Notes: generated by a model from the letters alone, not told the origin. Shown: positions 9,363 to 42,849, counted from the first letter of the stretch. The stretch: 64,000 nt of DNA from Candidatus Multivoradales bacterium (GCA_965248925.1 CBDFLE010000006.1:1632001-1696000); one strand, 5' to 3'. Made by a program: numbers and translations.

Positions 9363-9391
9363 AAGACGGGCGCCCAGCCGTGCGCCCCTAC
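9363..9391. repeat. GTAG-family REP-like palindrome
   Basis: AAGACGGGCGCCCAGCCGTGCGCCCCTAC; 28/29 identical to 36026-36054. Confidence 0.7.
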
Positions 9392-12643: not shown

Positions 12644-12974
12644 GAGGCAGAATCTTGGCTGCCGCGGGCGAGTTGTCAAGGGTAGAGCAAGGCGTCTGGC
12701 TAACGCTACGGTGTTTCCGGGGATCTCGAGGGAGAATCTGCCAAACTGGCACACGTAAGGCTTAAAGCTCTTGAAACAAACAACTTAGATGGGTCGAGGG
12801 GAGAAAGATCAGACCGAGATCCCCTGAGAGACGATAAAATCAATGATATCAATGGGATACAAGACTTCGGAAAACACGAAACCGGCACAATCGAGGGTCC
12901 AGCGCCGCATTTTGACGAGATCCCCTGAGAGCCGCCTGCAAGTCCTTTGCTTTCAAGGGCCTGGAAAGGGTAGA
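12644..12974 (+). promoter_or_regulatory. CRISPR leader region
   Basis: Non-coding, more AT-rich 330 bp between cas1 and the first intact repeat; degenerate repeats lie at the opposite end. Confidence 0.7.
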
Positions 12975-16170: not shown

Positions 16171-16551
16171 TCAATCCGCTGGCAACTGGTCAAGAGGAAC
16201 TCTCTTAGACAAAAGCTCGCCCGCCTCTATGGACCCTTTCTTGGTGAGATTGAGCCAGCAAATATCGCCGAGATCCGGCCCCTTGGGCAAGGCCAGCCAC
16301 TCACTTTCAATCTGCTGAAGGGCTTGGTCAACAGGAATCTTCCAGGCTGTGAATCCTGTCTCTGTAACCATCCCGACATCCATCAAGTCTCGCCCGAGTA
16401 GCTCCCGAAGAACCCGGAGTGAGAGATCACGAACTTCGGCTTCACTCGTTGCACCACCGACCGAGCGTGCTACCCAAGCAACTTCCGTAGCATCGACCCA
16501 ATCGTCCAAACCACGTCGCAGAAGCTCTTCGACAAGATTGTGCAGGCTCAT
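16171..16551 (-). CDS. Putative cognate immunity protein of the RHS toxin
   Basis: 126-aa ORF overlapping the RHS stop (ATGA), same lower-GC composition as the toxin tip. Confidence 0.65.
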   Translation of the reverse strand: MSLHNLVEELLRRGLDDWVDATEVAWVARSVGGATSEAEVRDLSLRVLRELLGRDLMDVGMVTETGFTAWKIPVDQALQQIESEWLALPKGPDLGDICWLNLTKKGSIEAGELLSKRVPLDQLPAD

Positions 16552-19500
16552 TGCTGTACATGCACCTTGCGCCTGGCTCCACTAGGCAGCTTGATGTCGA
16601 TGGTTGGCCCTCCAGACTTCGAGCCAGTGCGCAAGCCTACCGTCGTACCGTCGGGCAGTTTGACTAGCTTACCTGGATACCTTGTGGCGTCGACTGGTGT
16701 GCCGCCGCGGCTTAAGCGACCAAATATGCCCCCTAAATCATCAGCCGACTCGACTACTTTGACGCTAGAACTGCTCCCAGCTCGCAAGCCGGAAAGAGCG
16801 TCGCCAACAGCCTCCGCTCCCCTCCTTGCCTGTGCCGCTTGACGCAGCTTTTTGATTCTCTTCGCTCTCTTGACAGCTTTTGTGAGCTTCACCCCTTTGC
16901 TAACAACCTTGAAAAGCCCCACACCTGTGGCACCTGTCGCCGCCCCAGTGAGAAAAGCTGTGCCTACGCCCGTGGTTAGATCATCGCCCGCTATCGCGTT
17001 AATCGCAACTTGAAAACCGACATCTACGACTCCACCAAGAAACGCGGTTACCAGAAAGGCAAGTCTTCCGTCCGGGTCTACCTGGTTGATTGGACTGTTG
17101 CTGACGTAAGAGAAACGATTCCAACTCTGGGGTGAGGACCGGCTGCCCAGAGATGGATCGACACTCAAGAACCGCCCCACCACCGGATTGCAATGCCGAG
17201 CATGCATGTAGTCCAGCTCGCTCCTCACCCCGGTCCCGGTCTTGTCCCGCTCATGACCGGTAAACTTCAGCAGAATCTCATCTGCCCCCGCGCTGGTCGC
17301 CTCCTGACCAAAGGGGTAGTAGTTGTGCAACGCCACCTGCTGACCGCCACGAGTGATCTGCCGGGGCGTACCCAAATGATCAAGATGCAGATGCGAGGTC
17401 ATCTCGCCGCCGCTACCATCGGGCTCGATGGTGGCCAGCGGCTGGCCACCTCGATGGACGTAATCCCGGCTCCAGCTGAAAGCGCCGCCAGCCGGCTGAT
17501 CGTAGATTCGCAGGACTTCGTTCCCGAGCCCACGCAGGGTCCAGGTGAGACTGGCGGGCTGGGTGGTGCAAGTGCTGGTGGCGCCGGGGCCGAAGCAGTC
17601 GAAGGTGAGGATCCGCTCGTCGCTGGCGTTGTAGATGAAGACCCGCGCTTGATCGGTGTTTGAGCGCAGGTGCTTCATCATGTTGGCGCCATCGAAGGCG
17701 TAGTCGAAGCTCTCGCTGCCGAGGGTGATGTCGGTCAGATTGCCGGCAGCGTCGTACTGAGCGCCTGAGAGGCCGAGGCGGTTGGTGGTGGTGCTGGGGT
17801 TGAGGTTGAGAGCCACGAAACCGGGTGTCGACAACTGCTGGATGTTGCCGAAATTGTCATAAGTCGCCGTCTGGGTGAACCGGGTGGCACCAACGGAGGT
17901 CTGGCCGGAGCGTAATCGGCCGAGGCGGTCATAACGGTAGTCCAGGTTGCCGATGGCGGAGATATTGCCGGCTCCGTCGTAGGCGAAAATGCCGCTGCTC
18001 CAGCCCGCGGAGGTGGTCAGCTGATGCGGCCTGGCGAGGCCGTTGGAGCTGCTGACTTCCTGGGTGTCAACCACGCCATCGCCGTGGGTGAGCTGATGCA
18101 GCATGCCACCGCTCTGGTAGGTGAGGTTGTTGGCGAAGCCGGGCACGGACCTCAGCATACCCTTCTCGTAGTTGAAATTCACCGTGCGCTGCGGATCGTT
18201 GGTGGCGCAGCCGCCGTCGGCGTGTTGGCAGCTGGGGTAGTCGAGTTGCGACAAATTGCCCTGGGTGTCATAGACGAAACCGGTGGTGAAGGCGTAGTTG
18301 CCGGCGAAGAATTGGTAGCGGGTCTGCTTCTCCGACATCAGCCCCTGACGACCGGTGTAGCGGAAGCTCTCGGAGAGCTTGACGTCGAGGAAGCCGGGCT
18401 CGGGGGCCAGGGGATTCTGGATGTCGACCCAGTTGTGGCGCACGGTCTGCACCAGCTTGCCGGCCCGGTGGTCGCTGCCAGAGTTGGCGCGGGCGTAGCG
18501 GAACTGCTTCTGCAGACGCGGGGTGCTCCCCGCGCCATTGCTCGATTCGAGGACTCTGATCAGTCGGCCGGCGGCGTCGAAATCGAAGCTCAGATCGAAG
18601 GCGGTGCTGCCGATCAGATCTTTGGAGGTGGCGTTGCCGCCGGCGTCATAGCGGTAATCGATGCGGCCATTGCCCGAGGGGCCGATCTCGGGATGGGTCT
18701 CGGAGAGTAGGAAGCCGCGACCGTCATAGTCGAACAAGCGGGTCTGGCCGCAGGTCGAGCCGGCGAGGTTCTGGCACACTTTGGTCAGTCTGCCACCATC
18801 GTCATATGAGTAGCGAGTCAGCAGACCGCCACCGCCACAGCTCCCTGACCAGGGGGCGGAACTGCCCTCGCAGACCTCGGCCAGACGGCCCTGGCCGTCC
18901 ATGATCTCGGTGACGTAGGTGTCTTGCTGGCCACTGGTCAGCTGCACTTTGAAGCGCCGGGTCTGCACCCGGTCGCCTTGGTAGGTGAAGAAGGTCGCCG
19001 GCTGTTCTGGCGGCTTGACCCGGCCGGGGCGGCCGAAGCGATCGTAGGCGATGTAGGTCGTGCGCCGGCTCTCGCCGGCCGCGGAGGCGGTGGTCCACAC
19101 CGACTCGTCCGTCTTCCAGTGACGGGGGTTCCAGGTTGTGTAGCGATGCCAGAGCTCGGTCTGGCCAGCGTTGGCGACGGGGATGCGCACGGTCTGTTGC
19201 AGCCGCCGGCCGAGGCCGTCGTAGCGGTGCTCGCGGAAGCTCATCAGATCGGTGCCGCTGCAGGAGGTCTGGAAGGGCTGGCACTGTTGCTCGGTGAGCT
19301 TGGGCGCAAGACTGGGGTTGGCGGTGGTGGGCAGGGTGTAGGTCCACTGGGTCCAGCCCAGCTCGGCCGGGCGCTGGCCGGTCAAGCGGCCCAAGCGATC
19401 GTAAGTGAAGCTGGTGCCCAGGCCCGCCGCGTCGCGGCTGGTGGCCACCAGGCCGGTGTCTGAGTCGATGTCGTAGTCGGCCAGGGTGAGTATCGCGGTG

Positions 19501-21554
19501 CCGGTGCAGTCCACCGCCGTCGACTTGCGCAGGCTGCCGCTGGCGTAGACGTGGTCGGTGCGGTAGGTCGGGCCGGACAAGCCGAGGCTGCACAAGGAGC
19601 CGGTGCCGAGGTTCTGGGTGTCGCCGCCATAAATCCGCTGGCGGGTGACGAAGCCGTTGGTCGAAGTGAGGAGGCTCACCACATCGCGGCTCTGACGGCT
19701 GCTGCCAGCCAGCTGGCGGCGGCGTTCGAGAAAGCCGGTGGTGCTACTGAAGCAGAACTCGGCCTTTTCTGTGGTTCCGCCTTCGCTCACCGACTGCTCG
19801 TCCCAGGTCTCCAGGATCCAGCGTGCGTTGTGGCTTGGCAGCACGAAATCGGTTGCCGGATCGATCGAGCTGTCGTCGGGGTTGGCGATGATGTAGGTGC
19901 CGCTGTTGGCGTTGTAGGTGGTGCTGCTGGTGCGCACGTCGGCGGCGCCGAAGCTGCCGCCGGTGGTCATGGTGCGGAAGTGGCCCAGGCCATCGAAGTC
20001 CGAGAAGGTGACTTCGCGGAACTTGCCGCCGTCGTCGTGGAAGGTCTCCTTGCGGTAGCGCAAGCGGTGGGCCTTCTCGTTGTAGTTGCCGGCGTCGCGG
20101 CCATCGCTGTCGAACTCAACGAAGATCGAGCGGAGCTTGGTTCCGCCAGCGTTGAAGAGTTCTTGGGAAAGGAAGGGGCCGGCTTCTGAGAAGCTGCCAC
20201 TGATGGGATCGCAGTAGGTGTAGGGCAGGCCGTAGGACCAGCGATTGTTGGCGCCGACGGTGGAGAAATAGCTCACCGTTTCGAAGCCCAGCGGATCAGT
20301 CACTTTCATCGAGTGGAAGCAGGGGTGGCCCAGCGGATCGCCGGGGGCTTGCGGGTTTGCGGTGTCGTAGCTGTAGTTCCAGGTGGCGTAGGGGGTGGTG
20401 TCGCCGTCGTCGAGGAAGAGATGTTTGCTCTTGACTCCCCGCGCCACCGTGCCCCAGTCAGGAGCATGGAAGAGGTCGGCCAGCTGGGTTTGGAAGGGGA
20501 AGAGCTGGTAGTCGTAGCCGTAGGCGCCACCGGTGGGCAGGCGCAGTTTCGACAGGCCACCGGAGAGCAGGTTGTCGACGGTCAGGTAGTCCATCTCGTA
20601 GAACGAACCGTCGGGCAACACCACCCGGTCGAGCACCTGGGTGGTGAGGGTGTGCTCGGCTATCGGCACGCAGCCGGGACGGAAGCCGAACTGCCGTTCG
20701 AGGGTCTCGGTGCGGTACTGAAAGAGGAAGGTCGAGTTGCTTTGGCTGCCGAAGGCTTCGAGCCTCACCGTAGCGACTCTGCCACCGACAAAATCCACCG
20801 TGTGAGTGCGCCCTTGGCTGTCGGTCAATGTCCAGTCGCCATCGTTGGCATAGCGCACATTGATCCAATTGCCGAAGCGATCCTCCATCCGCGTCAGGCG
20901 CCAAATGTCCCTTACGGTAGCGTAGTTATGAAATTCATGCAGCTCGCCGCCAGGAAATTCTATGGTGAAGCAGCTCTGATCGACAAACGTACCAGCGGGC
21001 AGCTCGCACACTCCCGGATTGCGTCGGCGGAGGCGCAAATAGGTACTGTCGTTGGTGAACCAGGTGCTGGGCTGCGGGGTCGCTGGAAAGCCACCGGGGT
21101 GTAGCTCGGTGTAAAACCTGTGCTCGCCGCCGCTTGGATCGACGTAAATCTCAGGCGTTGTCGTCGGACTGTTACGCGGCGCGATCAGCTCTCCGAGGCT
21201 GACTCGCCAGCCGAAGCCTGCCCGGGTCTGGAGATCCTGGATCGGCAGACTGTAGGTGCGCAGCATGAACGGTGGGTTGATGTCCTGGCATTGGTGGTTC
21301 TCGTCGTACTCCCAGCCGCCAGAGCTGTACGAGGCGGTCAAGCTGAAGCTCAGGGACGGGCCGACGGGGTAGGTGATTCCGATCGGCAGAGATACGGTAA
21401 GGCTGCCGTTGAAAAGGTTGATTTGATCCAGGTCGCTGATCTGGTAGGCGGTGTCGGCGGTCACTCCGCGCTGGTGGCTCGGGGGGAGTTGCGCGGTCAG
21501 CGGCAGGGCGATGCAGAGGCCGAGAAGGATGAGGGTGAGAGGTCTAATTCGCAT
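16548..21554 (-). CDS. Secreted RHS/YD-repeat polymorphic toxin
   Basis: Signal peptide; many YDxxGRL repeats; RHS core HLDHLGTPR, YYPFG, FTGHERD, GRFLSVDP, PINQVDPDGR; basic C-terminal domain. Confidence 0.92.
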   Translation of the reverse strand: MRIRPLTLILLGLCIALPLTAQLPPSHQRGVTADTAYQISDLDQINLFNGSLTVSLPIGITYPVGPSLSFSLTASYSSGGWEYDENHQCQDINPPFMLRTYSLPIQDLQTRAGFGWRVSLGELIAPRNSPTTTPEIYVDPSGGEHRFYTELHPGGFPATPQPSTWFTNDSTYLRLRRRNPGVCELPAGTFVDQSCFTIEFPGGELHEFHNYATVRDIWRLTRMEDRFGNWINVRYANDGDWTLTDSQGRTHTVDFVGGRVATVRLEAFGSQSNSTFLFQYRTETLERQFGFRPGCVPIAEHTLTTQVLDRVVLPDGSFYEMDYLTVDNLLSGGLSKLRLPTGGAYGYDYQLFPFQTQLADLFHAPDWGTVARGVKSKHLFLDDGDTTPYATWNYSYDTANPQAPGDPLGHPCFHSMKVTDPLGFETVSYFSTVGANNRWSYGLPYTYCDPISGSFSEAGPFLSQELFNAGGTKLRSIFVEFDSDGRDAGNYNEKAHRLRYRKETFHDDGGKFREVTFSDFDGLGHFRTMTTGGSFGAADVRTSSTTYNANSGTYIIANPDDSSIDPATDFVLPSHNARWILETWDEQSVSEGGTTEKAEFCFSSTTGFLERRRQLAGSSRQSRDVVSLLTSTNGFVTRQRIYGGDTQNLGTGSLCSLGLSGPTYRTDHVYASGSLRKSTAVDCTGTAILTLADYDIDSDTGLVATSRDAAGLGTSFTYDRLGRLTGQRPAELGWTQWTYTLPTTANPSLAPKLTEQQCQPFQTSCSGTDLMSFREHRYDGLGRRLQQTVRIPVANAGQTELWHRYTTWNPRHWKTDESVWTTASAAGESRRTTYIAYDRFGRPGRVKPPEQPATFFTYQGDRVQTRRFKVQLTSGQQDTYVTEIMDGQGRLAEVCEGSSAPWSGSCGGGGLLTRYSYDDGGRLTKVCQNLAGSTCGQTRLFDYDGRGFLLSETHPEIGPSGNGRIDYRYDAGGNATSKDLIGSTAFDLSFDFDAAGRLIRVLESSNGAGSTPRLQKQFRYARANSGSDHRAGKLVQTVRHNWVDIQNPLAPEPGFLDVKLSESFRYTGRQGLMSEKQTRYQFFAGNYAFTTGFVYDTQGNLSQLDYPSCQHADGGCATNDPQRTVNFNYEKGMLRSVPGFANNLTYQSGGMLHQLTHGDGVVDTQEVSSSNGLARPHQLTTSAGWSSGIFAYDGAGNISAIGNLDYRYDRLGRLRSGQTSVGATRFTQTATYDNFGNIQQLSTPGFVALNLNPSTTTNRLGLSGAQYDAAGNLTDITLGSESFDYAFDGANMMKHLRSNTDQARVFIYNASDERILTFDCFGPGATSTCTTQPASLTWTLRGLGNEVLRIYDQPAGGAFSWSRDYVHRGGQPLATIEPDGSGGEMTSHLHLDHLGTPRQITRGGQQVALHNYYPFGQEATSAGADEILLKFTGHERDKTGTGVRSELDYMHARHCNPVVGRFLSVDPSLGSRSSPQSWNRFSYVSNSPINQVDPDGRLAFLVTAFLGGVVDVGFQVAINAIAGDDLTTGVGTAFLTGAATGATGVGLFKVVSKGVKLTKAVKRAKRIKKLRQAAQARRGAEAVGDALSGLRAGSSSSVKVVESADDLGGIFGRLSRGGTPVDATRYPGKLVKLPDGTTVGLRTGSKSGGPTIDIKLPSGARRKVHVQQ

Positions 21555-26910: not shown

Positions 26911-27372
26911 CTAATCGAAAGTCTCTAGGATCTCAGCCGGCGCTTGCTCCGGCGACTCGAAGGGATTCACCACCCGCAGCTGACCGAAGAGCTGGCCGTG
27001 GTTGAGATCCTCGGTCAGCAGCACCTGGCAATCGCAGATCTGGGCGGCCGCGATGATCAGCGCATCCCACCACGAAAGGGAGTGGCGCTCGTACTGAACC
27101 CAAGCTCGTTCCATGACCGCAAGATCGATCGGCAGGGCTCGCCAAGAGGTGAGGTCGCGAATCAACTGCTGGGCCTGCCCGGCATCCATCCCAGGCTTCA
27201 GCTTGTGGGTGAGGGTGACGTAAAGTTCCTGCAACACCTGATAGCTAAGATGCCCCGAACGTTGGCGCCAAAGAAGGCTGAGCCAGTCGGCGGCCCTCGG
27301 CTGCTTGGCAGGCTCGCTGGAATCATGGCGATAGACCAAGACGTTGGTGTCAACGAAGACTGGCACGGTCAT
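26911..27372 (-). CDS. PIN-domain (VapC-like) toxin
   Basis: VFVDTNVLVY, QVLQELY, LSWWDALIIAAA, LLTEDL. Confidence 0.92.
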   Translation of the reverse strand: MTVPVFVDTNVLVYRHDSSEPAKQPRAADWLSLLWRQRSGHLSYQVLQELYVTLTHKLKPGMDAGQAQQLIRDLTSWRALPIDLAVMERAWVQYERHSLSWWDALIIAAAQICDCQVLLTEDLNHGQLFGQLRVVNPFESPEQAPAEILETFD

Positions 27373-27592: not shown

Positions 27593-27718
27593 CACAAAAA
27601 ATTAGTGCAACACGAGTTCCGTGTCAAGATAAGTTACAAAAGAAACTCGCCGACGCCTCCGGCGTCTTGCTGGCTCCGCCAGCAGGGCCGCTCCGCGACC
27701 CCGCGCTCCGCGCCTGGG

Positions 27719-28609
27719 CTACCGCCCTGAGCGCAGACCCTGACCTAGAGCAAGGCGGAAGCCCAAGAAGTCGTAGCGGAGCGACGGGTGCCAGTAGTAG
27801 CGGTAAGCCGCACGCACGTAGCGAGCGTCGTAGTTCCACGCACCCCCGCGGATGACCCGGTTGGCGCCTTCTTCAGGGCCAGTTGGGTTTCTCTGCTCAA
27901 CCGACTCGTAGCCGCCATACCAGTCGTGGCACCATTCCCAGACATTGCCAAGCGTGTCGTAGAGCCCCCAGGGGTTAGCCTCCTTCTCAGCCACCAGCCG
28001 AGTCCCCGCCCGGTGGTGGGGATGTTGCTTCTCCGGCCAGTTTGAAGAATCTTCACCCTCCGTGAGATCAAAGTCGACGCCACTGTTGCCGCCATACCAA
28101 CCGATATCATGGAGTAGCGGAGCATCGTTCGCACCGACGATTTCCAGGTCGCCGGCGTAGGTCGCGGTCTCAGTACCGGCGCGGCAAGCGTGCTCCCACT
28201 CTGCTTCGCTGGGCAAACGAAGCTCTAGTGCCGAGACTCTCCGGTTGAGAACTTGCAAGAACTCCTGGCAATCTTGCCAGCTCACCTGTTCTACCGGCCG
28301 CTGGAGCGATACAAAGCGGCTCGGATTTTCGCCGTCCATGACCGCTAGCCAAAGTGCCTGCGTACAGGGGGTGTCGGCCAGCCAGAATCCCGCGGTCAGG
28401 GTGACTCGATGCCGAATTTCGTCGTCATCGCGGCCTTGTTCCTCCTCTGGCGAGCCCATCCAGAATCTACCGGGCCGAATCCACCGTAGACGTTGCTCCA
28501 CCCCACCTATTTCAAAAACCACAAAAACCCCGTACCGATCCTCGCCCCAGGCTGTGGCCCAGCTAGGCGGGTTCCCAGAAGAGAGTGGGTGGTCCAGGAA
28601 ATCAGCCAT
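27719..28609 (-). CDS. DGR target 1: FGE-sulfatase/C-type-lectin-fold protein with C-terminal variable region
   Basis: PGRFWMGSP, TPCTQALW, PVEQVSW, RLPSEAEWEHACRAG, NPWGLYDTLGNVWEWC, RVIRGGAW...LGFRLAL. Confidence 0.92.
   Translation of the reverse strand: MADFLDHPLSSGNPPSWATAWGEDRYGVFVVFEIGGVEQRLRWIRPGRFWMGSPEEEQGRDDDEIRHRVTLTAGFWLADTPCTQALWLAVMDGENPSRFVSLQRPVEQVSWQDCQEFLQVLNRRVSALELRLPSEAEWEHACRAGTETATYAGDLEIVGANDAPLLHDIGWYGGNSGVDFDLTEGEDSSNWPEKQHPHHRAGTRLVAEKEANPWGLYDTLGNVWEWCHDWYGGYESVEQRNPTGPEEGANRVIRGGAWNYDARYVRAAYRYYWHPSLRYDFLGFRLALGQGLRSGR
27745..27870 (-). repeat. DGR variable region VR1
   Basis: 126-bp copy of TR with 11 mismatches, all at TR adenines. Confidence 0.95.
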
Positions 28610-28771
28610 GGAATTGGGGATCAAGAATCAGCCGCCGGTGAGCTTTCGCGGCTGCTGCTGCTGCCCTACTAACACACCGGCGGCCGTCACCATGTTTGCT
28701 GCCCACATAGCAAGGGTAAGCAGACTGGACGGCGGCCTGGTCAGTGGCGGGCACTGCGGCCCGCGTCTGCG

Positions 28772-28897
28772 CTAGAGCAAGGCGGAAGCCCAAGTTGTCG
28801 TTGCGGTTCGACGGGTGCCTGTAGTTGCGGTAAGCCGCACGCACGTTGCGTGCGTTGTTGTTCCACGCACCCCCGCGGATGACCCGGTTGGCGCCTT
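28772..28897 (-). ncRNA. DGR template repeat (TR)
   Basis: AAC-rich invariant copy (TGG AAC AAC AAC GCA CGC AAC...TCG AAC CGC AAC GAC AAC TTG GGC TTC CGC) just downstream of the RT. Confidence 0.95.
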
Positions 28898-28929
28898 TTT
28901 GGCCGCGCCCGAGTTGGCAATCATATCGC

Positions 28930-29961
28930 CTAGGCATCAATGCTACCTCGCTGGACGAGTTCTTCGCGGCGCCAGGCTCGCGCCTCGGCATGCGCAGTCA
29001 CGGCATAGACAGAGGCATAGCCGGCCTGCAACTGCTGACCGTCGATCAGACCGGCAAGATAAGCGGTCTCGAAACGTCGCCTGGCAGTGGCATAGCGCCG
29101 CCGACGGCGGCGGGATAGCAGCAGCCGGTCGCCGAAGATCCGAAAGCCGAGCAGCGGCAGACCGCGGCAGCTTGGTTGGACCTGCCAGTGTGGCTTGATC
29201 GTCAGGTGCAGAGCCTGATCTGCATGTGCCACGGCCTGCTGAGCCGCCGCCCGCACAACGGCTGGGCTGTTCCCCCAGATCGCCACATCGTCCATGTATC
29301 GCACCATCGCAACACCTTGCCCCTCCAACAGAAGGCGATCGAGGCTTGCCAAGTAGAGGTTGGCGAAGTGCTGCGAAGTCAGCGCGCCGATGGGCAACCC
29401 TCGAAGCCCTTCTCTGGATCCTTGGTCAGTCGCCGGAGATAGATAGCTGGCGATGATCCGGTCGATCAAGTGCAGCGTTGCCGCACCCTTGATACGCCGC
29501 CTGAGCTGGGAGCGCAAGATAGCATGATCGATACTGGCAAAGTAGGCTCGCACGTCGAGCTTGACGAACCAACCATAGCGAGCCGTATGACACTGCGCCC
29601 GCTTTACAGCTGCCAGCGTACCCTTGCCCAGCCGGCAGGCAAATGTATCGTCCACCAGCAGTCGTTCGAGTACCGGGCCTACCCGGGCCATGAGCGCATG
29701 GTGAAGCACTCGCTCGCGAAAACAAGGCGCCTGGATAACTCGCCGCTTGGGATCATGAATGGTGAACGAACGCCTCGATCCGACCCGGACCCGTTGCTCT
29801 AGTATTTCGCGCCCGAGACGTGCCAGCTCTGACAGAAGATTCGCCTCGAAGGCCCGAACCTCCGGCTGCTGGCGCTTGCCCTTGGCGGCACGCCAAAACG
29901 CTGCACCGAGGTGTTCTAGCGAGGCAACATCCTCTAGTTGCACCAGCGCCCGCTTAGTCAT
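28930..29961 (-). CDS. DGR reverse transcriptase
   Basis: HDPKRRVIQAPCFRERVLHHAL, KLDVRAYFASIDH, GLPIGALTSQHFANLYL, RYMDD. Confidence 0.95.
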   Translation of the reverse strand: MTKRALVQLEDVASLEHLGAAFWRAAKGKRQQPEVRAFEANLLSELARLGREILEQRVRVGSRRSFTIHDPKRRVIQAPCFRERVLHHALMARVGPVLERLLVDDTFACRLGKGTLAAVKRAQCHTARYGWFVKLDVRAYFASIDHAILRSQLRRRIKGAATLHLIDRIIASYLSPATDQGSREGLRGLPIGALTSQHFANLYLASLDRLLLEGQGVAMVRYMDDVAIWGNSPAVVRAAAQQAVAHADQALHLTIKPHWQVQPSCRGLPLLGFRIFGDRLLLSRRRRRRYATARRRFETAYLAGLIDGQQLQAGYASVYAVTAHAEARAWRREELVQRGSIDA

Positions 29962-30430
29962 GCCGCCCCTCCTGGTCCGCGGCTGAATTCCAGGCGGCAC
30001 GCAGAGCCTCCACGAACGCGGCACCGTATTTCTCAGCCCGTTTGGCGCCCACTCCTGCCAATGCTTCCAGCTCACTGGGGGTCTGCATTCGCTGGCGCAC
30101 CATGGCAGCCAACTGCGCATTAGTGAAGACAGAATAGGGTGGTACGCCGTCTCGCTGCGCAAGCTCCTTACGGAGCTTTCTCAGCTCGGCAAAGACAGTG
30201 AAATCTGCGCTCGACAACACTTCTCTATAGTCGATCTTCCCTTTTCTGATCGCCGGAATTGCTGCTGAACTCTCCTGATAATTGATGCATAACGCCCAGA
30301 AAGCAGCCCCATCGCCCACTACTAGATGGCGCTTGACCGACAGCACCCGATGGCTGCCGAGAAAGGCATTCAGCTCCGCCTCGGCGGTATCGGGAGCGAG
30401 CGCCGGCACCCCGAAGAATTTCATCTTCAT
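29954..30430 (-). CDS. HRDC-domain DGR accessory protein
   Basis: AELNAFLGSHRVLSV; LRKLRKELAQRDGVPPYSVFTNAQL...GVGAKRAEKYG; sits between target 2 and the RT, where Avd usually lies. Confidence 0.88.
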   Translation of the reverse strand: MKMKFFGVPALAPDTAEAELNAFLGSHRVLSVKRHLVVGDGAAFWALCINYQESSAAIPAIRKGKIDYREVLSSADFTVFAELRKLRKELAQRDGVPPYSVFTNAQLAAMVRQRMQTPSELEALAGVGAKRAEKYGAAFVEALRAAWNSAADQEGRHD

Positions 30431-33081
30431 TTTTCCGCGGCCTCCGGCCGCGAAGGGTCGCGAAACGTACTCGCCCCTGGAATCTCTGCATCCGGAGGGC
30501 GCTCCGCGCCCGCGGGCTCCGCCCGCTCTGCTTGCGGCTCCGCCGCCTTGAGCGCACCCTGACCTAGAGCAAGGCGGAAGCCCAAGTAGCCGCTGCGGAG
30601 CGACGGGAGCCTGAAGCGGCGGTAAGCCGCACGCACGCCGCGTGCGAAGTCGTACCACGCACCCCCGCGGATGACCCGGCCGGCGCCTTCTCGTGGAACT
30701 CCGTAGCTAGCGCTCCAATGATCCTGACACCACTCTTCGACATTCCCTAACATGTCGAACAGTCCCCAGGGATTCGGAGGCTTCTCAGCAACTGGATGGG
30801 TCTCTCCCCCGCTATTGTGGTGGTACCAGGCGACTTTCTCGATTTCTGGTGCTCTACCTTCCTCATCGATTGTCAGCCCACCCTGGTAGGTTGCCGTCTC
30901 GGTGCCCGCGCGACAGGCGTACTCCCACTCGACTTCCAGAGGAAAGCGACATTCGAGGCCGGGATTCTGTTCGTGCAGCGTCTTGAAGAAGCTGTCGCAA
31001 TCTTCCCAGCTGATCTTCTCTACGGGGCGGTCGTCCGCGGGGAAGTTGCTTGGATTGTTGCCCATAACAACTTGCCACAGACGTTGGGTGCAGGGGGTAT
31101 CGGCCAACCAGAACCCGCGCCGGATCACTTCGAGATGGCGGGGCCCCTCATCGTCCCAACGACCGGGCTCATCTTCGGGAGACCCCATCCAATAGCGCCC
31201 TGGCGGAATCCAGCGCAGGCGTTGACTGACTCCCTTGACTTCGAATGAAGCCCACAGACCGAAGCGATCCCGGCCCATGGCACTCGCCCAAGGGGGACGG
31301 GTGACCTGGTGGAGGGTGGCCTCGGTGCGATCGGTGCGGAGGATCACAGCCGGTGCCGAAGGCAGAAGAATCTCAGTGGACTCTGAGAGCAGCACCGGCA
31401 CCGGTACGGCCTCGGGCTCGGCGCCCCCGACCACGCGGTCGACACTGTCAACCGCCGTCAAGAAGCTGCCAGGGGGAACCGTTCTGAGAGCCGGCGCAAA
31501 GCGAATCGACTGACAGTAGTGAAAGACCTGCCAGCGTTGCAGGCGACCCTGAGAATCACTAGGAGGAATCCGATCCGAACCTTCAGAAGTCGAGGCTTCG
31601 GCATCCCCCGTCGCCCTCCAGGCACGCCAGAGGTAGGGACGTAGCGATTCGTTCTGCCACAGGGAACTCGGATGCCGGTCGCGGAGCGCCCGGCCGGCGA
31701 AAGCACCTACCGCGTCGACTACCTCTTCGTCGGTGGCCCCGCCACCGTCGACGGTCTCAGCCACCCGGCGCCACAGCAAGTGGGCAGCACCGATCTCCGC
31801 CTCGCTGAGGGTGCCTGGCGGCAGCTCGGCTTCGCTGTCGAAGGCCAGGACCTCATCGAGCCAAATCTCCTTGGCCTTGCCTGCCCGCCACGCCCGCATA
31901 GTCTGCACCACGGCTGTCTTGAGGCGCGGCGCCAGGCGGCGAAACTTCTGCTGTAGCCGGGTTCTGAGCGGCCGCGCGAGGTCTGCTGAATCGGCCAGCC
32001 CTGGGTAGACTTCAGGATGCATCCACACATCGCCCTCGACTCCGAGGTCGCTGCTGGGTAGAAGCAGTCGCAGTGCCCGCAGCAACCCCGGCTCGATGTT
32101 GGAAGCAAAGGCCAGCAAGGTCAGCAAGTCCTCTGCACGCTGCTCGCGCAGGTCGGGGTTTTCGCTTTCGACCCGCCGCGAAGCAGCGGACGGGCGCGCC
32201 CAATCCACCGGCTGCCAGACCGCCATCGCCTTGAAGTCCCAGCGGCGTGCGGGACAGGGGACCAGGGCGGTACAGCGCACGCCGCGCCGCGCCAGGCGAT
32301 GGCCAATCGCCGCCCACTCGCCACGTTGCCGGGCGCCAGCCAAGCAGCCGAGGTCACCCAGCACCAGGAGTGGCACTCCGGCCAAGGCCGGCGGCCTGGC
32401 ACTGCGTTCTTCACCCCACTGCCAAGGCCGCTGCTCGTCTTCGTAGAAAACAACCTGCTCAATCCGCCGCCGGCCAAGCAGCGCTCGCAGCATCCTCAGC
32501 ACGCGATCCTGATCCTCCCAAAAAGGCAGTAAGCGGAGGCTGCGGTCGACCATCAGCATAACTCTGGGGGACCAGGCGCGCAGAGTGCGGTAAGGCAGGC
32601 GGTCGGGAAGCCCACCCCGGCTGGTGTGCTCGATGTAGGCGTCGACATCCAGCTCGCGACTGACCAGAGTGGTGGCGAGCGCGCGTTGCAAGCGCGGCCA
32701 CAGGCGGGCATCCGAGACGATCGGCGGAGCGGCTGGTGCCTCGCCCTGCCTGCGGCCCAGGCCCTCCCAACCGATCGGCTCTGCCTGCGCGCGGGGCTCG
32801 GCTTCGTCACTCGGATCGAGATCTCGGTAGGCGATCGATTCGAGTCGCCAGAAGGGGATCGCGGCAAGTGGCAGCTTCGCTGTGGACTCGTCAAGCTCTG
32901 GACGTTGCGAAAAATCTTGGCGAGCGGCGGACAGGCGATCCGGCAGATCAGCGTCGGCCGCAAACGTGACCGCGCGCCCGTAGCCAAGTCGCTTTGCCAT
33001 CATACTGAGGGCTTCATCGCCCTGCGCGTGGAAAGCTCTGAGTAGATCAGCCCGGCCGGTCCCGGCCGCCGGTATCGTCAT
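30427..33081 (-). CDS. DGR target 2: degenerate vWA-like N-terminus plus C-terminal FGE/CLec domain with VR
   Basis: ELDVDA...MLMVDRSLRLLPFWEDQ and LLVLGDLGCL (vWA-like); C-terminal FGE motifs PGRYWMGSP, NPWGLFDMLGNVEEWC, RVIRGGAW. Confidence 0.88.
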   Translation of the reverse strand: MTIPAAGTGRADLLRAFHAQGDEALSMMAKRLGYGRAVTFAADADLPDRLSAARQDFSQRPELDESTAKLPLAAIPFWRLESIAYRDLDPSDEAEPRAQAEPIGWEGLGRRQGEAPAAPPIVSDARLWPRLQRALATTLVSRELDVDAYIEHTSRGGLPDRLPYRTLRAWSPRVMLMVDRSLRLLPFWEDQDRVLRMLRALLGRRRIEQVVFYEDEQRPWQWGEERSARPPALAGVPLLVLGDLGCLAGARQRGEWAAIGHRLARRGVRCTALVPCPARRWDFKAMAVWQPVDWARPSAASRRVESENPDLREQRAEDLLTLLAFASNIEPGLLRALRLLLPSSDLGVEGDVWMHPEVYPGLADSADLARPLRTRLQQKFRRLAPRLKTAVVQTMRAWRAGKAKEIWLDEVLAFDSEAELPPGTLSEAEIGAAHLLWRRVAETVDGGGATDEEVVDAVGAFAGRALRDRHPSSLWQNESLRPYLWRAWRATGDAEASTSEGSDRIPPSDSQGRLQRWQVFHYCQSIRFAPALRTVPPGSFLTAVDSVDRVVGGAEPEAVPVPVLLSESTEILLPSAPAVILRTDRTEATLHQVTRPPWASAMGRDRFGLWASFEVKGVSQRLRWIPPGRYWMGSPEDEPGRWDDEGPRHLEVIRRGFWLADTPCTQRLWQVVMGNNPSNFPADDRPVEKISWEDCDSFFKTLHEQNPGLECRFPLEVEWEYACRAGTETATYQGGLTIDEEGRAPEIEKVAWYHHNSGGETHPVAEKPPNPWGLFDMLGNVEEWCQDHWSASYGVPREGAGRVIRGGAWYDFARGVRAAYRRFRLPSLRSGYLGFRLALGQGALKAAEPQAERAEPAGAERPPDAEIPGASTFRDPSRPEAAEK
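30564..30689 (-). repeat. DGR variable region VR2
   Basis: 126-bp copy of TR with 17 mismatches, all at TR adenines. Confidence 0.95.
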
Positions 33082-33112
33082 CGGCGAACCAAGCCGAGGA
33101 CCTCTCCCCGCC

Positions 33113-34081
33113 CTACCACCCGACTTCCTCATCCGGGTGCTTACGCAGGGCAAATGCCCTGATCTTGCCTAATGCCAGCTTCTGTGCCGCTGCGTCTCCC
33201 GCCCACCGGCTGGCGACCACTCGCAAGAGATCCAGATACTCAGCGCCTCCCGGTGGGCAAAGCCCGCGGCCCTCTACTGCCTCGCGGTCGTCAGCCACCA
33301 TCTCCGCAGCGCTCTGCAACACCTCTTCTGCGAGGTCACCAAAATGCGCCCGGCCACGGGCGACAAGACGCTCGATGAGTTCGAACCGCTTCTTGGGCCA
33401 CCTGAGCTGCAGCACCAGGCAGCGGCGGATGAAGGCATCGGGTAGGGTACGCTCCTCGTTGGTGGTGACCACCACCAACGGCGCCAGCGCCTCTACTGGC
33501 CTTGAGACCACCCTGCCATCCGGTAGCCGAAACTGGCCTTGTCCCAGGGCCTCCAGCAGGCCATTGGGCACCGCCGGATCGGCTTTGTCGATCTCGTCGA
33601 CCAACAGCACAGCACCATCGGCCCCCGTCCAACCTTCAGGAGTCCAGGGTTCGAGCCCACCGCCAAGGGTGGCCTGCTCCTTGGCACCCTCCCAGTCGAA
33701 AACCCACCACAAGGGACCTGGGGTGGTGAACCGCTTGGGGTCGAGCTGCGCCCGCGCCTCTTGCACCTCTCCCAGGTGGCTGATGATCTGCGCTTCGGCG
33801 AGCCTGGCCACCGCGTCGACGGAGTAGAGCAGATCGCGAGACTCAGTCCGCGCATCGACGGTGAAAGGGAGGAATGCCCGACCGAGCATTGCCGCGGCGG
33901 CGCGGGCCAGCTGGCTCTTGCCGACTCCCGGCTCGCCGCGCACCAAGAGCGGCCGCTGACAAGCCAAGGCCGCGTTGACAGCCTCGACCTGATCCGCCTC
34001 AAAGACATGCGCGGTCTGCGGCCAAGTATCGTAGGCGGCGATGGTCTCGGTGTGGGGTGGCTCGCATTCGAGATACTTCAC
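33113..34081 (-). CDS. MoxR-family AAA+ ATPase
   Basis: RPLLVRGEPGVGKSQLA, VLLVDEIDKAD, VVVTTNEERTLPDAFIRRC. Confidence 0.93.
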   Translation of the reverse strand: MKYLECEPPHTETIAAYDTWPQTAHVFEADQVEAVNAALACQRPLLVRGEPGVGKSQLARAAAAMLGRAFLPFTVDARTESRDLLYSVDAVARLAEAQIISHLGEVQEARAQLDPKRFTTPGPLWWVFDWEGAKEQATLGGGLEPWTPEGWTGADGAVLLVDEIDKADPAVPNGLLEALGQGQFRLPDGRVVSRPVEALAPLVVVTTNEERTLPDAFIRRCLVLQLRWPKKRFELIERLVARGRAHFGDLAEEVLQSAAEMVADDREAVEGRGLCPPGGAEYLDLLRVVASRWAGDAAAQKLALGKIRAFALRKHPDEEVGW

Positions 34082-35568
34082 TTCTTTTTCTTCCTCGCGT
34101 TGTAAGAGCGGAAGAGAATCGCCTGCAAGGACTCACAGGCGTCTCGTTCGGAGATCCGACTCTTCCCCGTCAGGTGGGTCAAACCAAGACTTGGCAAGCC
34201 AACTTCGACCCTCTTCAGAAATCCACGGCGCTGGTGGGCGAAGTCGTCGGTGAAGAGGAAGTAGCGCCGTGGCAGCTTGTAGCGCCCTACCTCCTTGGCC
34301 AGGCGCTGGTCCACATGTGGCAGAAGCTCCTCGAACCGCTCTGCCCGAGAAAGCTCTTCCAAATCCGCCGTGTCGATTTTCATCCATCGAGCCAACATGA
34401 GAACCCAGCGGAAGAACGCTTCTTGAGATCCGAAATCAAATCCAACCTCGCCCTTCCGCTGCGAGCGGGTGTCACCTTTTTGGAACTTGGCGGTAGGTTC
34501 GGGATAGTCATGCATCCCTACCACTGCTTTGAAGCTGTAAGACCGATTCTCAAGCGCTGCCATGGCGATCTCAGCCAAAGTGCTGGTCTCGACCGGTAGA
34601 CTCACCAGCTGTCCGCCGTCATTGCCAGGAAGAACAGACATCGAAGTTGCCCAATAGACTTCTGGCAAAACCCGCGCCAGGATCTGCTCGATAACCGCCG
34701 CCGCATTCTGCTCTTCCGCGTCACCCTCCATCATCCTCTGGTGGGCTCGATCAAACACTTCAAGAATCTCGCGCCAGGAAGGAGCGTCGCAAAGGGTCGC
34801 GGCGAGCTTGCTGTACCCATCCTCGCCGTTGAGCAGCTGTTGCCAGCTCTCGGGACCTTCCGTGGCGATGGCGCGAGCAGCTAAAGCATCTTGCTCCAAG
34901 AGCTTCCTGAGATCGGTCTCGATATCCCGTCGCCGCGACTGCCTATTCTCTTCAACCGTCCGCTCATAGCCGGCCTTGGACCGAAATTCCTCGTCTTGCC
35001 ACAGCAACGCCAAAGGCACAGCCTTCAGGCGACGCCCATCAAACGCCTCGAGGCCATCGGTAAGGATGCCCACCAGACGGCGATCACAGAACACTGGCGC
35101 CCCCGAAACACCGCTCCAATCGGTCACCTTCTGAGGCGCTGCCTCGATTGAGATCTCGAAACGACGGGTGGTGTCCGTATGCGCCATAGCCTTGCCCCAG
35201 AGGCTGACCATATTGTCAACCACACTCGGGCCGTTAGCTTCCGCAACCTCCGCCCAACCGCGAGTGCGCCACGGCCGATCTTCAGCCAGCCGCCCCGTCG
35301 CCACGATCTGTCGGGCCAACCGCTGCCCGGTCTTGACTTCCAAGATGGCTACGTCGAGATCATCCTCGCCACGCCAAACCACTCTGGCGCTCTGCTTCTG
35401 GACCTCACTAGCCGTCACCCTATCGAAACGAACCTCCACCGCCGCCGCACCATCCACGACATGCCGAGCCGTGATCACCCGATCTCCATGCAGCAAATAG
35501 CCCGTTCCCCCACTATGGGCGCCGGACTTGTCCTGGCAAATGATTTGCACGAAGCGGTGCAGGTCCAT
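34078..35568 (-). CDS. Trypsin-like serine protease domain plus uncharacterised C-terminal domain
   Basis: Catalytic triad motifs ITARHVV, DLDVAIL, WSGVSGAPV. Confidence 0.85.
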   Translation of the reverse strand: MDLHRFVQIICQDKSGAHSGGTGYLLHGDRVITARHVVDGAAAVEVRFDRVTASEVQKQSARVVWRGEDDLDVAILEVKTGQRLARQIVATGRLAEDRPWRTRGWAEVAEANGPSVVDNMVSLWGKAMAHTDTTRRFEISIEAAPQKVTDWSGVSGAPVFCDRRLVGILTDGLEAFDGRRLKAVPLALLWQDEEFRSKAGYERTVEENRQSRRRDIETDLRKLLEQDALAARAIATEGPESWQQLLNGEDGYSKLAATLCDAPSWREILEVFDRAHQRMMEGDAEEQNAAAVIEQILARVLPEVYWATSMSVLPGNDGGQLVSLPVETSTLAEIAMAALENRSYSFKAVVGMHDYPEPTAKFQKGDTRSQRKGEVGFDFGSQEAFFRWVLMLARWMKIDTADLEELSRAERFEELLPHVDQRLAKEVGRYKLPRRYFLFTDDFAHQRRGFLKRVEVGLPSLGLTHLTGKSRISERDACESLQAILFRSYNARKKKK

Positions 35569-35602
35569 CGCAGAACCGGCGTCGCCCTGCTGCACCGGCA
35601 CC

Positions 35603-35896
35603 TTAGAGTTCCCGTCCAAGCAGGGTCTTACCGCCCTGGGCATCGACCGGCCTTAGCTTGAGCACGATCTTCTGTGTCTGGCTATTCGCCGCCGAGCCGG
35701 CAACACCGGCCTCGGCCAACCAGAACTTGATCCCGGTCTTGCCTTCCACCTCCCGACTCACCGTCACTTGAGCCTCCACCGTGACCTCCAATGGCTCGAA
35801 CCGAATCCCCTGGCCACTGCCTTCGACCTTGGCAAAGGAGAGTTCTTCACGAAGTTGCTCGATCATCTCTGCGAGTGCGATTCGCTTTCCAGACAT
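35603..35896 (-). CDS. Trypsin-co-occurring (Trypco2) domain protein
   Basis: IALAEMIEQLREEL...IRFEPLEVTVEAQV...GIKFWLAEAG...TQKIVLKLRP; directly upstream of the trypsin gene. Confidence 0.85.
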   Translation of the reverse strand: MSGKRIALAEMIEQLREELSFAKVEGSGQGIRFEPLEVTVEAQVTVSREVEGKTGIKFWLAEAGVAGSAANSQTQKIVLKLRPVDAQGGKTLLGREL

Positions 35897-36129: not shown

Positions 36130-36582
36130 TCAGACATCTACGGGATCAATCGCCTTGATGCCAAGATCAGCGAAACGCCGGAAGTCGCTGGTGTTGAAGG
36201 TCAAAATGGTATTAACCTGGTTGCTGAGCATGACCGCGACGAGTCGGGCATCGTGAACCTGTACTCCCGAAACGCCGAAGCGAAGGACGAGATCTCGCCA
36301 GTATTCATAGGTGTCGAGCGTCTCGTGTAGACGGGGGAAGGCAATCTCGAGACGTCGCAGCATCTGGTCCGCGGCGGCAGGTGTTTGCCCAAAGCCATTG
36401 GCTCTTGCCGGTCGTGTCGCTACATTCCAAAACTCGATGAAGTTCTGGCCCGCAGCAAACAAGTCGCTCCCTCGCGAGCCGACTGATTCGATGGCCCGGA
36501 GCGCGGTGCCGTGCAAAGACTCTCGCGGCGCCGCTAGGCGCAACAATACGTTGGTGTCGACGAGGAGAGCCGAAGAGGCCAT
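36130..36582 (-). CDS. PIN-domain (VapC-like) toxin
   Basis: LLVDTNVLLR, QNFIEFWNVATRP, QVHDARLVAVM, ILTFNTSDF. Confidence 0.92.
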   Translation of the reverse strand: MASSALLVDTNVLLRLAAPRESLHGTALRAIESVGSRGSDLFAAGQNFIEFWNVATRPARANGFGQTPAAADQMLRRLEIAFPRLHETLDTYEYWRDLVLRFGVSGVQVHDARLVAVMLSNQVNTILTFNTSDFRRFADLGIKAIDPVDV

Positions 36583-36842
36583 CAAGGATGACTGTTGTAG
36601 ATGCCGTCGCGCGAGACAGCATCGTCAGAGAGGGTAGGCGCGTCTGAGAGGCTGGCAGCCAGCTCGCTGAGAATCGCCCGGCGTGCCTCTGGTGTCGGCT
36701 GAACACACCCCTTCAGTAACCTCTCCACCGTAGGCTCAACAGCCTGAACAAGCACTTGGCGCACCAGTGCTGCGTCATGGCGCAGAGCGCCCTCTTCGAG
36801 GCGGCGTTCCTGTTCGTTTGTGAGTTCGATGGTGAAAGTCAT
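36582..36842 (-). CDS. Putative antitoxin
   Basis: MTFTIELTNEQERRL...LSDDAVSRDGIY, upstream of the PIN gene. Confidence 0.78.
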   Translation of the reverse strand: MTFTIELTNEQERRLEEGALRHDAALVRQVLVQAVEPTVERLLKGCVQPTPEARRAILSELAASLSDAPTLSDDAVSRDGIYNSHP

Positions 36843-36903
36843 GGCGTGATCTCCGGTAGTCGCGCCAGAATACCATACTGACCACCGACCAACACTGCCC
36901 CAC

Positions 36904-38304
36904 CTAAATCTGCGTCGCCCGCCCATCGACCGCCAGCGCTGCCTGCTTGACCACCTCGGCCAAGGTCGGGTGGGCGTGGGCGGAGCGGGCGATGTCTTCG
37001 GCGCTGGCGCCGAACTCGACAGCGATGGCTAACTCGGCGATCAGATCACCGGCGCGGGGGCCGATGATGTGAGCGCCCAAAAGGCGGTCGGTGTCGGCGT
37101 GGGCGAGCAGCTTGACCATGCCACCGGTGTCGGCCAGGGCTCTGGCGCGACCGTTGGCCAGAAAAGGAAAGGTACCTTTGTTGTAGGGCACGCCGGCTGC
37201 TTTGAGTTCTTCTTCGGTCTTGCCCAGGAAGGCGATTTCGGGGTGGGTGTAAACAATGCTGGGGATGGCGTCGTAGTTCAGGTGGCCATGACCGGTGACG
37301 ATTCCTTCGACGCAAGCAACGCCCTCGTCTTCGGCTTTGTGGGCCAACATGGGACCGTGGATCACATCGCCGACGGCGTAGATCCCCTCGACGTTGCTGC
37401 GATAGTGACCGTCGACTTTGACCCGGCCACGCGGGTCGAGTTCGACGCCCGCGGCTTCGAGCCCCAAGCCCTCGGTGTAGGGCCGCCGGCCGATGGCTAG
37501 CAGCACCCGGTCGCAGGCCAGGGGGTCGCGGCCGTCAGCTTCGACGATGCAACCGTCGCCTTCGAGCCGCGCGCTGGTAACCCGGACGCCGAGCTGGAAG
37601 TCCATGCCCTGCTTTTTGAAAACCTTTTGCGCCTGTTTGGCAATCTCGGTATCTACTCCTGGCAAGATGCGGTCGAGATACTCCAACACCGTAACCTTGG
37701 CGCCCAGGCGAGCCCACACAGAGCCCAGTTCGAGACCGATCACGCCGGCTCCGATCACTACCAGGTGTGCTGGCACCTCGGGGTAGGCCAGGGCTTCGGT
37801 GCTGGTGCCGATGCGGTCGCCATCGAGCTCGACACCCGAGAGCGGGGTGACTTCGCTGCCGGTGGCGATCAGGATGTGCTCGGCTTCGAGACGCGCGCTG
37901 TCGGTGCCCTCGACGATCACCACTCCTTTGCCGTCGAGGCGGCCAGCGCCTTGGTAGCGGGTGATGCCGTTCTTTTTCAACAACCCGGCAACACCCTGAG
38001 TGAGGGCCTTCACCGTGCTGTCTTTGTGCCGCAGCATGGCTTTGAGATCGAGTTCGACGCCGCTGACTTTGACCCCGAAGCGCTTGAGATCTTTCTTGGT
38101 GGCGTGGTAACGCTCGCTGGCTTCGAGCAAGGCTTTGGAGGGGATGCAACCGACCCGCAAACAGGTGCCGCCCAACAGGGGTTCCTTTTCGATACAGGCA
38201 ACATCGAGGCCGAGCTGGGCGGCGCGAATGGCCGCCACGTAACCGCCGGGACCAGCGCCGATGACCACCAGGTCGTGGTGGCGACTGTCAACTTTCTCAG
38301 CCAT
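36904..38304 (-). CDS. lpdA: Dihydrolipoyl dehydrogenase (E3)
   Basis: GAGPGGYVAAIRAAQLG, GGTCLRVGCIPSK, HAHPTLAE. Confidence 0.97.
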   Translation of the reverse strand: MAEKVDSRHHDLVVIGAGPGGYVAAIRAAQLGLDVACIEKEPLLGGTCLRVGCIPSKALLEASERYHATKKDLKRFGVKVSGVELDLKAMLRHKDSTVKALTQGVAGLLKKNGITRYQGAGRLDGKGVVIVEGTDSARLEAEHILIATGSEVTPLSGVELDGDRIGTSTEALAYPEVPAHLVVIGAGVIGLELGSVWARLGAKVTVLEYLDRILPGVDTEIAKQAQKVFKKQGMDFQLGVRVTSARLEGDGCIVEADGRDPLACDRVLLAIGRRPYTEGLGLEAAGVELDPRGRVKVDGHYRSNVEGIYAVGDVIHGPMLAHKAEDEGVACVEGIVTGHGHLNYDAIPSIVYTHPEIAFLGKTEEELKAAGVPYNKGTFPFLANGRARALADTGGMVKLLAHADTDRLLGAHIIGPRAGDLIAELAIAVEFGASAEDIARSAHAHPTLAEVVKQAALAVDGRATQI

Positions 38305-39561: not shown

Positions 39562-42801
<3,240 letters not shown>

Positions 42802-42849
42802 CGTCAATTGACTCCTGAGACCTTGGGAACCAGGGCATCATCTCACGAT

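Follow-up and report, generated by a model that had tools for sequence, protein, structure and literature searches.

A diversity-generating retroelement serving three lectin-fold targets in a Trypco2–trypsin–MoxR operon of an Acidobacteriota-like bacterium

Doré et al. 2024 (PNAS, PMC10907252) describe diversity-generating retroelements (DGRs) of reverse transcriptase (RT) clade 5A in which a MoxR gene lies directly upstream of a diversified target with an unannotated N-terminal extension, the target N-termini being, in their words, "without predicted domains". A short, lectin-only target stands beside the long one in these loci, genes for Trypco1/2 and for trypsin, TIR or caspase proteins are often adjacent, and the target was proposed to sense antigen and to signal via MoxR to the peptidase. 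Here we analyse a complete DGR lodged in a Trypco2–trypsin–MoxR operon of Candidatus Multivoradales bacterium, within a stretch of 64,000 nt (GCA_965248925.1 CBDFLE010000006.1:1632001-1696000), hereafter the window, in which operon positions are counted; genome searches covered the 7.98-Mb assembly, which is 96.9% complete. We find that a single template repeat feeds three targets, one of them remote, and that the pairing of MoxR with the long target recurs in other genomes. We propose that the element probably diversifies the sensor of a MoxR–protease–pore pathway for abortive defence. An initial annotation of the window had inferred that a hypervariable sensor triggers a protease through MoxR, which is an already published hypothesis because Doré et al. 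2024 proposed it.

Kaur et al. 2020 (eLife, PMC7159879) introduced Trypco1/2 as the partners of trypsin and connected MoxR-vWA "VMAP ternary" systems with FGS domains diversified by DGRs, the DGR link being reported mainly for cyanobacterial and gammaproteobacterial systems. Evans et al. 2025 (10.1101/2025.11.14.688446) report in a preprint that Pepco, which is the same as Trypco1/2, becomes a pore toxin when an adjacent trypsin-like protease removes its C-terminal tail, and they list FGE among the sensors of Pepco–protease modules. In the survey of Wu et al. 2018 (PMC5758913), the HRDC-type, Avd-less architecture is a minority, with 14 of 372 DGRs, and some non-phage DGRs have remote targets at distances above 100 kb. 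Our literature searches paired DGR with Trypco2, trypsin, MoxR or vWA and brought up no study that tested a DGR-linked conflict system experimentally.

The operon occupies positions 35896-27719 on the minus strand, where seven intact, co-oriented open reading frames (ORFs) are packed into 8.2 kb in the order Trypco2, trypsin-like protease, MoxR-type AAA+ ATPase, long target with variable repeat 2 (VR2), HRDC protein, RT, template repeat (TR) and short target with VR1. Neighbouring genes overlap or are separated by about 40 nt or less, and terminator-like sites occur at both operon ends (36050-36031 and 27664-27648). The ORF map and the Pfam matches confirmed the gene order, strand, coordinates and intact ORFs that had first been reported, and all operon features given below lie on this same minus strand.

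A blind repeat search recovered three copies of a 134-nt unit in the window. We compared TR (28897-28772, 126 nt) with VR1 (27870-27745) and VR2 (30689-30564) over the 126-nt core, which contains 28 adenines and nine AAC codons. VR1 differs from TR at 11 positions and VR2 at 17, and every difference falls on a TR adenine (P ~1e-8 and ~5e-14, respectively, for random placement), in agreement with the counts of the initial annotation. These become 12 and 18 if a 128-nt core is used; since G replaces the additional TR adenine, at the 5' edge, in VR1, VR2 and the third VR described below, this position is probably a boundary and not a product of mutagenesis. The boundary AAA is the only TR codon able to mutate to a stop, and the variable codons permit about 10^14–10^15 peptides.

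Searching the whole assembly with TR, as had been suggested for finding remote VRs, gave four significant matches: TR itself, VR1, VR2 and a remote VR3, so that the element has three targets and not the two initially described. VR3 lies outside the window, about 185 kb from the DGR (G000:C6:1847039-1847164; locus L020, 7963-10374, minus strand), at the end of an 803-aa ORF that combines Mrr_cat, Ser/Thr protein kinase and FGE-sulfatase domains and is placed amid housekeeping genes (ribosomal S2/S9, FolD and an alanine-racemase-like gene). Over the 126-nt core, its 15 differences from TR are again all at TR adenines. The 98 non-A positions of the core are identical in all VRs, whereas the 300 nt upstream are only 56–62% identical between targets, indicating that, on an evolutionary timescale, each target received its copy of TR recently.

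Three hairpins with a GGA loop and the core GCGGAGC follow each of the three VRs, and none follows TR. Those 3' of VR2 (30497-30546; stems of 5, 6 and 6 bp, three GCGGAGC cores) are in tandem and GC-rich, and, like those of VR3 (at about 7950-8030 of locus L020), they fall within the coding tail, being translated as AEPxGAERPP repeats. The hairpins 3' of VR1 (27648-27713; stems of 4, 7 and 6 bp, also with three GCGGAGC cores) lie past the stop codon, and the last of them coincides with the terminator-like site at 27664-27648. RNA-fold z-scores of the hairpin regions after the VRs were only -2.4, -0.4 and -1.3, and the fold of the 151 nt after TR was not distinctive either (z -1.07). The GCGGAGC core is not enriched across the window (26 found against 31.6 expected), and only its clustering after the VRs is notable. 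The hairpins may be candidate target-recognition elements, like those of other DGRs.

The RT gene (ORF 30162-28930, likely start at 29961, about 343 aa from MTKRAL; RVT_1, E 6.5e-17) encodes a protein whose best PDB match is 8ub7_A (E 7.8e-39), as compared with 2.5e-12 for the best group II intron RT, and the alignment to 8ub7_A retains PIGxLTSQxFAN and YMDD. We take 8ub7 to be the Bordetella phage DGR RT, although the search output labels the entry only as 'Reverse transcriptase'. The HRDC accessory gene (ORF 30658-29954, likely start at 30430, about 158 aa from MKMKFF; PF00570, E 9.5e-20) has its ATG directly after the stop codon of the long target. The Avd family had no match among the seven operon proteins, and PF05635 had none in the genome, which extends the reported absence of avd from the operon to the assembly. 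The locus can therefore still be described, as it was at first, as a complete, avd-less, HRDC-type DGR inside a Trypco2–trypsin–MoxR operon.

To compare gene neighbourhoods, we used the family alignment to retrieve 80 genome loci, where a single-protein query had found none; only nine of them carry the N-terminal extension of the long target, because the retrieval patterns came from the FGE domain. In eight of these nine, a MoxR homologue (41–51% identity) is encoded directly upstream of the extension homologue, and the ninth is a 2.1-kb contig. The MoxR–target loci come from Methylococcaceae, Polyangiaceae, Lysobacterales, Isosphaeraceae and others, and this adjacency supports the view that the coupling of the DGR target to MoxR is no accident. 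Conversely, the slot before MoxR varies among these loci. It holds a trypsin with the same C-terminal domain as ours (E 1.2e-55), together with Trypco2, in L021; a protease-type C-terminal domain without a named head in L022 and L039; a TIR protein in L024; a metallophosphoesterase in L025; and unknown proteins in L027, L028 and L033. To judge from gene order, this is a fixed MoxR–target pair with an exchangeable effector slot, as is typical of conflict systems.

The same comparison bears on whether the DGR cassette, with its own targets, simply landed beside an unrelated Trypco2–trypsin–MoxR module. L021 alone among the related loci shares both Trypco2 and trypsin, and the PIN genes found on both sides of the operon hint at a mosaic region, as a chance adjacency would have it. 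However, the MoxR–target pair is kept in eight of nine loci from several phyla, and the genes of our operon overlap or abut, with the MoxR start overlapping the protease stop by 4 nt and the HRDC ATG abutting the target stop. Additionally, the best two relatives of the protease C-terminal domain lie on contigs whose lengths (43,303 and 12,690) equal those of the contigs of two long-target relatives, and these are probably the same contigs. We consider a chance association extremely unlikely.

Among the retrieved loci, RT matches occur only in L027, L073 and L098. Locus L027, from an endosymbiont of the tubeworm Lamellibrachia barhami, has the order MoxR, long target, HRDC, RT and short target, with three repeat copies (10562-12891). 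Its TR-like copy differs from the VRs at several non-A positions too, indicating that such loci can decay and suggesting, from sequence, that this DGR is decaying or diverged. The element in our window could likewise be a relic, once active and now silent. The source sample would agree with this, in that the contigs show one allele per VR, with X1 and X4 matching the window without a VR variant. Nevertheless, the four runs that contain the stretch do so as assembled contigs, which cannot reveal minority alleles. The contigs break at 27766/27841, 28868/28889 and 30557/30585, in each case where TR and the VRs share at least 31 nt, and the breaks are explained by these common 31-mers; X5 and X6, from a second sample, hold only short pieces, 85–97% alike, from relatives or other organisms. 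All ORFs are intact, the RT motifs are retained, the three VRs keep full identity at the 98 non-A positions and hairpins persist at each of them, all of which makes a relic very unlikely.

The long target (33153-30427; a 908-aa ORF, or 884 aa from the called start at 33081) bears an FGE-sulfatase domain at residues 648-862 (E 2.8e-36), and its first 640 residues gave no Pfam match at E <= 10 and none in NCBIfam or PADLOC. At E <= 0.001, this 600-aa N-terminal extension gathers a family of 95 proteins, and 93 of these have a C-terminal FGE domain; the named members are from Competibacter, Thiorhodococcus drewsii AZ1, Candidatus Venteria, Acidobacteriota, Pirellulaceae and Nannocystaceae, with our extension being homologous to a T. 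drewsii AZ1 protein (P0060, E 1e-44). A cluster look-up for the extension returned only FGE-labelled or unnamed clusters (best 0.91). An AlphaFold (AF2) model of the long target, built on 65 family members, reached a predicted local distance difference test score (pLDDT) of 84.9, and of 88.2 for the N-terminal part alone. Residues from about 136 to 295 fold into an alpha/beta domain, which carries the invariant motifs D..DQ and GDLG of the family consensus, those from about 305 to 490 into a helical domain and those from about 515 to 632 into an all-beta domain; a TvpA-type FGE/C-type-lectin domain completes the model. By this model, what has been called an unannotated N-terminal extension is a well-folded three-domain module, conserved across phyla.

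The extension had been labelled 'vWA-like', and we could not substantiate this label with any of four approaches. Family scans for a vWA domain were empty even at E <= 10, and the family profile retrieved only FGE-type proteins from the PDB, with no vWA among 36 matches. Aligning the alpha/beta domain by hhalign with 17 VWA_2 domains of the same genome gave a probability of 0.45%, no better than the 0.18% of the helical-domain control, and none of 500 Foldseek matches of the N-terminal model reached E <= 0.001. Foldseek did return weak matches to the NorD vWA chains of NorQ–NorD complexes (E 0.015, probability up to 0.92, TM score <= 0.31), which were no better than those to phosphoribosyltransferases and clamp loaders. 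A remote vWA relationship of the alpha/beta domain, lacking the metal ion-dependent adhesion site (MIDAS), is a lead only. These outcomes are in line with the description of such N-termini by Doré et al. 2024.

All three targets contain an FGE-sulfatase domain, with the VR at the C-terminus; in the short target (28624-27719, 301 aa; E 1.1e-42) the lectin is all there is. In the PDB, the lectin domain best matches Treponema denticola variable protein 1 (2y3c; E 1.6e-15 by fold and 1.5e-47 by profile). A PxWAxAxGxDRxG segment, noticed at the beginning of the short target and before the FGE domain of the long one, had been taken to suggest a swappable sensor head. Each of the three targets has this segment, as does the family consensus, and in the model it forms beta strands running straight into the lectin fold. 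It thus belongs to the lectin domain in all three targets, as the beta extension at the N-terminus of this TvpA-type domain, and is no evidence for a swappable head.

Trypco2 (35896-35603, 97 aa) matches PF19631 over the entire profile (1-78/78, E 6.6e-24). Its gene is unique in this genome, with a single match, and rare in the phylum, being found in 9 of 301 genomes, this one included. Six aligned homologues share a conserved final strand, QxVxLKLxP, followed by a variable tail of 12–30 aa, which is 14 aa long here. The adjacent protease (35643-34078; a 521-aa ORF with Trypsin_2 at residues 46-193, E 2.4e-9) likely starts at Met26 (35568) and joins an N-terminal trypsin-like part of about 195 aa to a C-terminal domain of about 320 aa that is conserved but unnamed and matches no Pfam family at E <= 10, VMAP included. 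Across 50 homologues, residues H61, D97 and S180 hardly vary. The C-terminal domain defines a family of 68 clusters at E <= 0.001, and a cluster look-up with it gave no usable match. Among 50 proteins with this domain (48 of the 68 family matches plus two from another search), the N-terminal heads are Trypsin_2 in 43, TIR_2 in two and Mrr_cat in one, a split that may under-count non-trypsin heads because 20 short or partial rows were left out. Lastly, the MoxR-type ATPase (34081-33113, 322 aa; AAA_5, E 2.4e-12) scores 22.1 bits with bpMoxR, under the cut-off of 27, and finds its best PDB matches in midasin AAA modules; Walker A (GEPGVGKS) and Walker B (LLVDEID) are intact, as read from the translation.

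The initial annotation cast the protease as the effector. Because Pepco is a protease-activated pore toxin in a homologous module (Evans et al. 2025, 10.1101/2025.11.14.688446), we read the protease instead as a transducer, more likely licensing Trypco2/Pepco, and Trypco2 as the terminal effector. By this analogy, Trypco2/Pepco and not the protease is likely the terminal pore-forming component.

The signal could also flow the other way, as in the model of Kaur et al. 2020 (PMC7159879), summarised by Doré et al. 2024 (PMC10907252): the protease protein would sense, MoxR would activate the protease, and the protease would cut the long target, freeing a hypervariable lectin that binds or neutralises the invader. 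Kaur et al. 2020 indeed name the FGS domains 'effectors' in direct contact with the invader, and the protease C-terminal domain, a conserved module, occurs with different N-terminal heads, as such a model would have it. We consider this direction quite unlikely here, however, since the demonstrated toxin activity of Trypco2 in the homologous module (10.1101/2025.11.14.688446) provides the protease with another substrate, the only hypervariable ligand-binding surface of the operon is on the targets, and no VMAP domain was found in the protease or in 50 family members.

Our preferred reading is that of a diversified lectin sensor acting through MoxR and the protease on a Trypco2/Pepco pore. In it, a complete chromosomal DGR, which has transferred TR sequence to all three targets, rewrites the C-terminal ligand-binding face of three proteins with the C-type-lectin/FGE fold. 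The diversified lectin of the long target would bind an invader-derived or other non-self ligand, and the N-terminal extension would relay the signal to the MoxR ATPase. MoxR would then remodel or release the trypsin-like protease, held via the C-terminal domain of the latter, and the protease would clip the C-terminal tail of Trypco2/Pepco, leading to a membrane pore and to cell death or arrest as a form of abortive defence. The short target and the kinase–nuclease target would share the repertoire generator and feed other outputs. We regard this pathway as probable; the ligands of the lectins, the direction of signalling and the contacts between the parts are its conjectural elements.

Several of our observations weigh against this reading. 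For this locus, the mechanism is a prediction from sequence. The Trypco2–trypsin pair occurs in only one of the eight related loci (L021), and the effector arm is therefore no fixed part of the system. The extension, which is the supposed relay, has no recognisable vWA or other adaptor domain in the scans, the PDB profile, hhalign or Foldseek, and the protease C-terminal domain, by which the protease would be held, matches no VMAP domain at E <= 10. Cleavage of this Trypco2 tail is predicted by analogy with Pepco, whose tail is cleavable after a conserved Ile, the residue being defined for SsPepco. Finally, the single allele per VR in the source-sample contigs and the non-A differences of L027 count here as they do for a relic.

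The lectins might, alternatively, be receptors for kin/self or environmental ligands that feed kinase or protease regulation, a 'regulatory pathway tuning' with no role as immune sensors. The Ser/Thr kinase on the third target would suit this, there is no phage-related gene in the operon, and cyanobacterial DGRs were earlier proposed to serve signal transduction, according to Doré et al. 2024 (PMC10907252). Nevertheless, every associated module has a conflict pedigree (Trypco2/Pepco, trypsin and Mrr nuclease here, TIR and NACHT at the other two DGRs of the genome), and the neighbourhood includes RT-Cas1, a CRISPR array, an RHS protein and PIN genes; we consider such tuning unlikely.

A wider version of our preferred, sensor-to-pore reading is possible, though less likely than not: the one TR would be a repertoire generator for the MoxR/protease/Pepco pathway, a free lectin and a kinase–nuclease, and the alpha/beta domain of the extension would be a cryptic, MIDAS-less, vWA-like dock for MoxR. 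If true, this version would bring together the clade 5A loci, so far 'domain-less', and the MoxR-vWA ternary systems of classical type, and it would offer a minimal, fully separable cascade of sensor, ATPase, protease and pore for reconstitution. The differently wired second target of the same TR is usable as an internal comparison. No bacterial system comes closer to an anticipatory receptor repertoire than DGR-diversified "antigen sensors" tied to effectors of cell death.

The genome contains two other DGRs. The first, at L119 (G000:C6:4806000-4825999), positions 2468-11141, comprises a TIR protein of 830 aa, a MoxR-type AAA_5 ATPase, a 946-aa FGE target, TR and RT, with all 11 TR/VR differences at TR adenines; its layout is as in the window, with a TIR head replacing the protease. 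The second, at L118 (G000:C5:138000-157999), positions 3846-9555, comprises a TIR-NACHT-FGE target of 1109 aa, TR and RT, with 13 of 14 TR/VR differences at TR adenines, and its region is flanked by repeats of 300 nt and 190 nt about 10.6 kb apart. The N-terminal-extension profile did not match the targets of these two DGRs, which is weak evidence given that the profile included lectin-extension columns; its single match was the kinase target, to the lectin-extension part.

The window also contains genes beyond the operon that deserve mention. PIN-domain genes flank the operon (36130-36585 and 26911-27372, both on the minus strand), and a 114-aa ORF without a family match (36582-36926), just upstream of the first PIN gene, may be its antitoxin partner. 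A second RT gene, on the plus strand (9765-12269), encodes an 834-aa RT-Cas1 fusion (RVT_1 at 352-556, Cas1 at 634-746) and is followed by a CRISPR-like array (13490-14715) whose repeat measures about 37 nt and whose period is 71–75 nt. Further genes on the minus strand encode an RHS-repeat protein of 1668 aa (16548-21554) and a 2-oxoglutarate dehydrogenase E1 (39562-42807) with an inserted cyclic-nucleotide-binding domain at residues 125-205, followed by E2 and E3.

Comparison with the described systems places this locus as a further example of a kind already described computationally. This locus, or one almost identical to it, may already be listed in the supplementary material of Doré 2024, Kaur 2020 or Wu 2018. 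It is a compact, complete test case and not a new principle, with sensor, ATPase, protease and Pepco effector on separate polypeptides. By gene layout, RT-tree position aside, the operon matches the clade 5A loci presented by Doré et al. 2024 (PMC10907252). Like those of Thiohalocapsa PB-PSB1 (DGR 8) and Thiorhodococcus drewsii, it has the MoxR–target order, a short and a long target, and Trypco with a trypsin-like peptidase. It differs in its host, which is Acidobacteriota-like, the nearest named relatives of its ribosomal protein S2 being from Acidobacteriota and Thermoanaerobaculia; the string 'Acidobacteri' does not occur in the main text of Doré 2024, and the architecture is now extended to such a genome. 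HRDC, present here, is likewise unmentioned in that main text. The same TR serves an additional, remote Mrr–kinase–lectin target, unlike in the clade 5A loci.

The element shares other features with the DGR of Treponema denticola. TvpA is a surface lipoprotein, whereas the targets described here are cytoplasmic-looking multidomain signalling proteins associated with a MoxR/protease operon. Both elements nevertheless have an HRDC gene, the lectin fold of 2y3c and remote targets more than 100 kb away, which in the TvpA DGR corresponds to Architecture C of Wu et al. 2018 (PMC5758913). With the VMAP ternary systems of Kaur et al. 2020 (PMC7159879), as these are presented there, our operon has in common MoxR, trypsin with Trypco2, a DGR-linked FGS domain with a TvpA-like all-beta N-terminal extension, and variable effector heads; unlike them, it has no detected vWA or VMAP domain. 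As in the Pepco modules of Evans et al. 2025 (10.1101/2025.11.14.688446), a small Trypco2/Pepco gene immediately precedes that of a trypsin-like protease, which has a catalytic triad. In the system those authors tested, the protease is fused to an Avs4 STAND sensor, whereas here the three functions of protease, ATPase and sensor fall to separate proteins, and a DGR diversifies the sensor.

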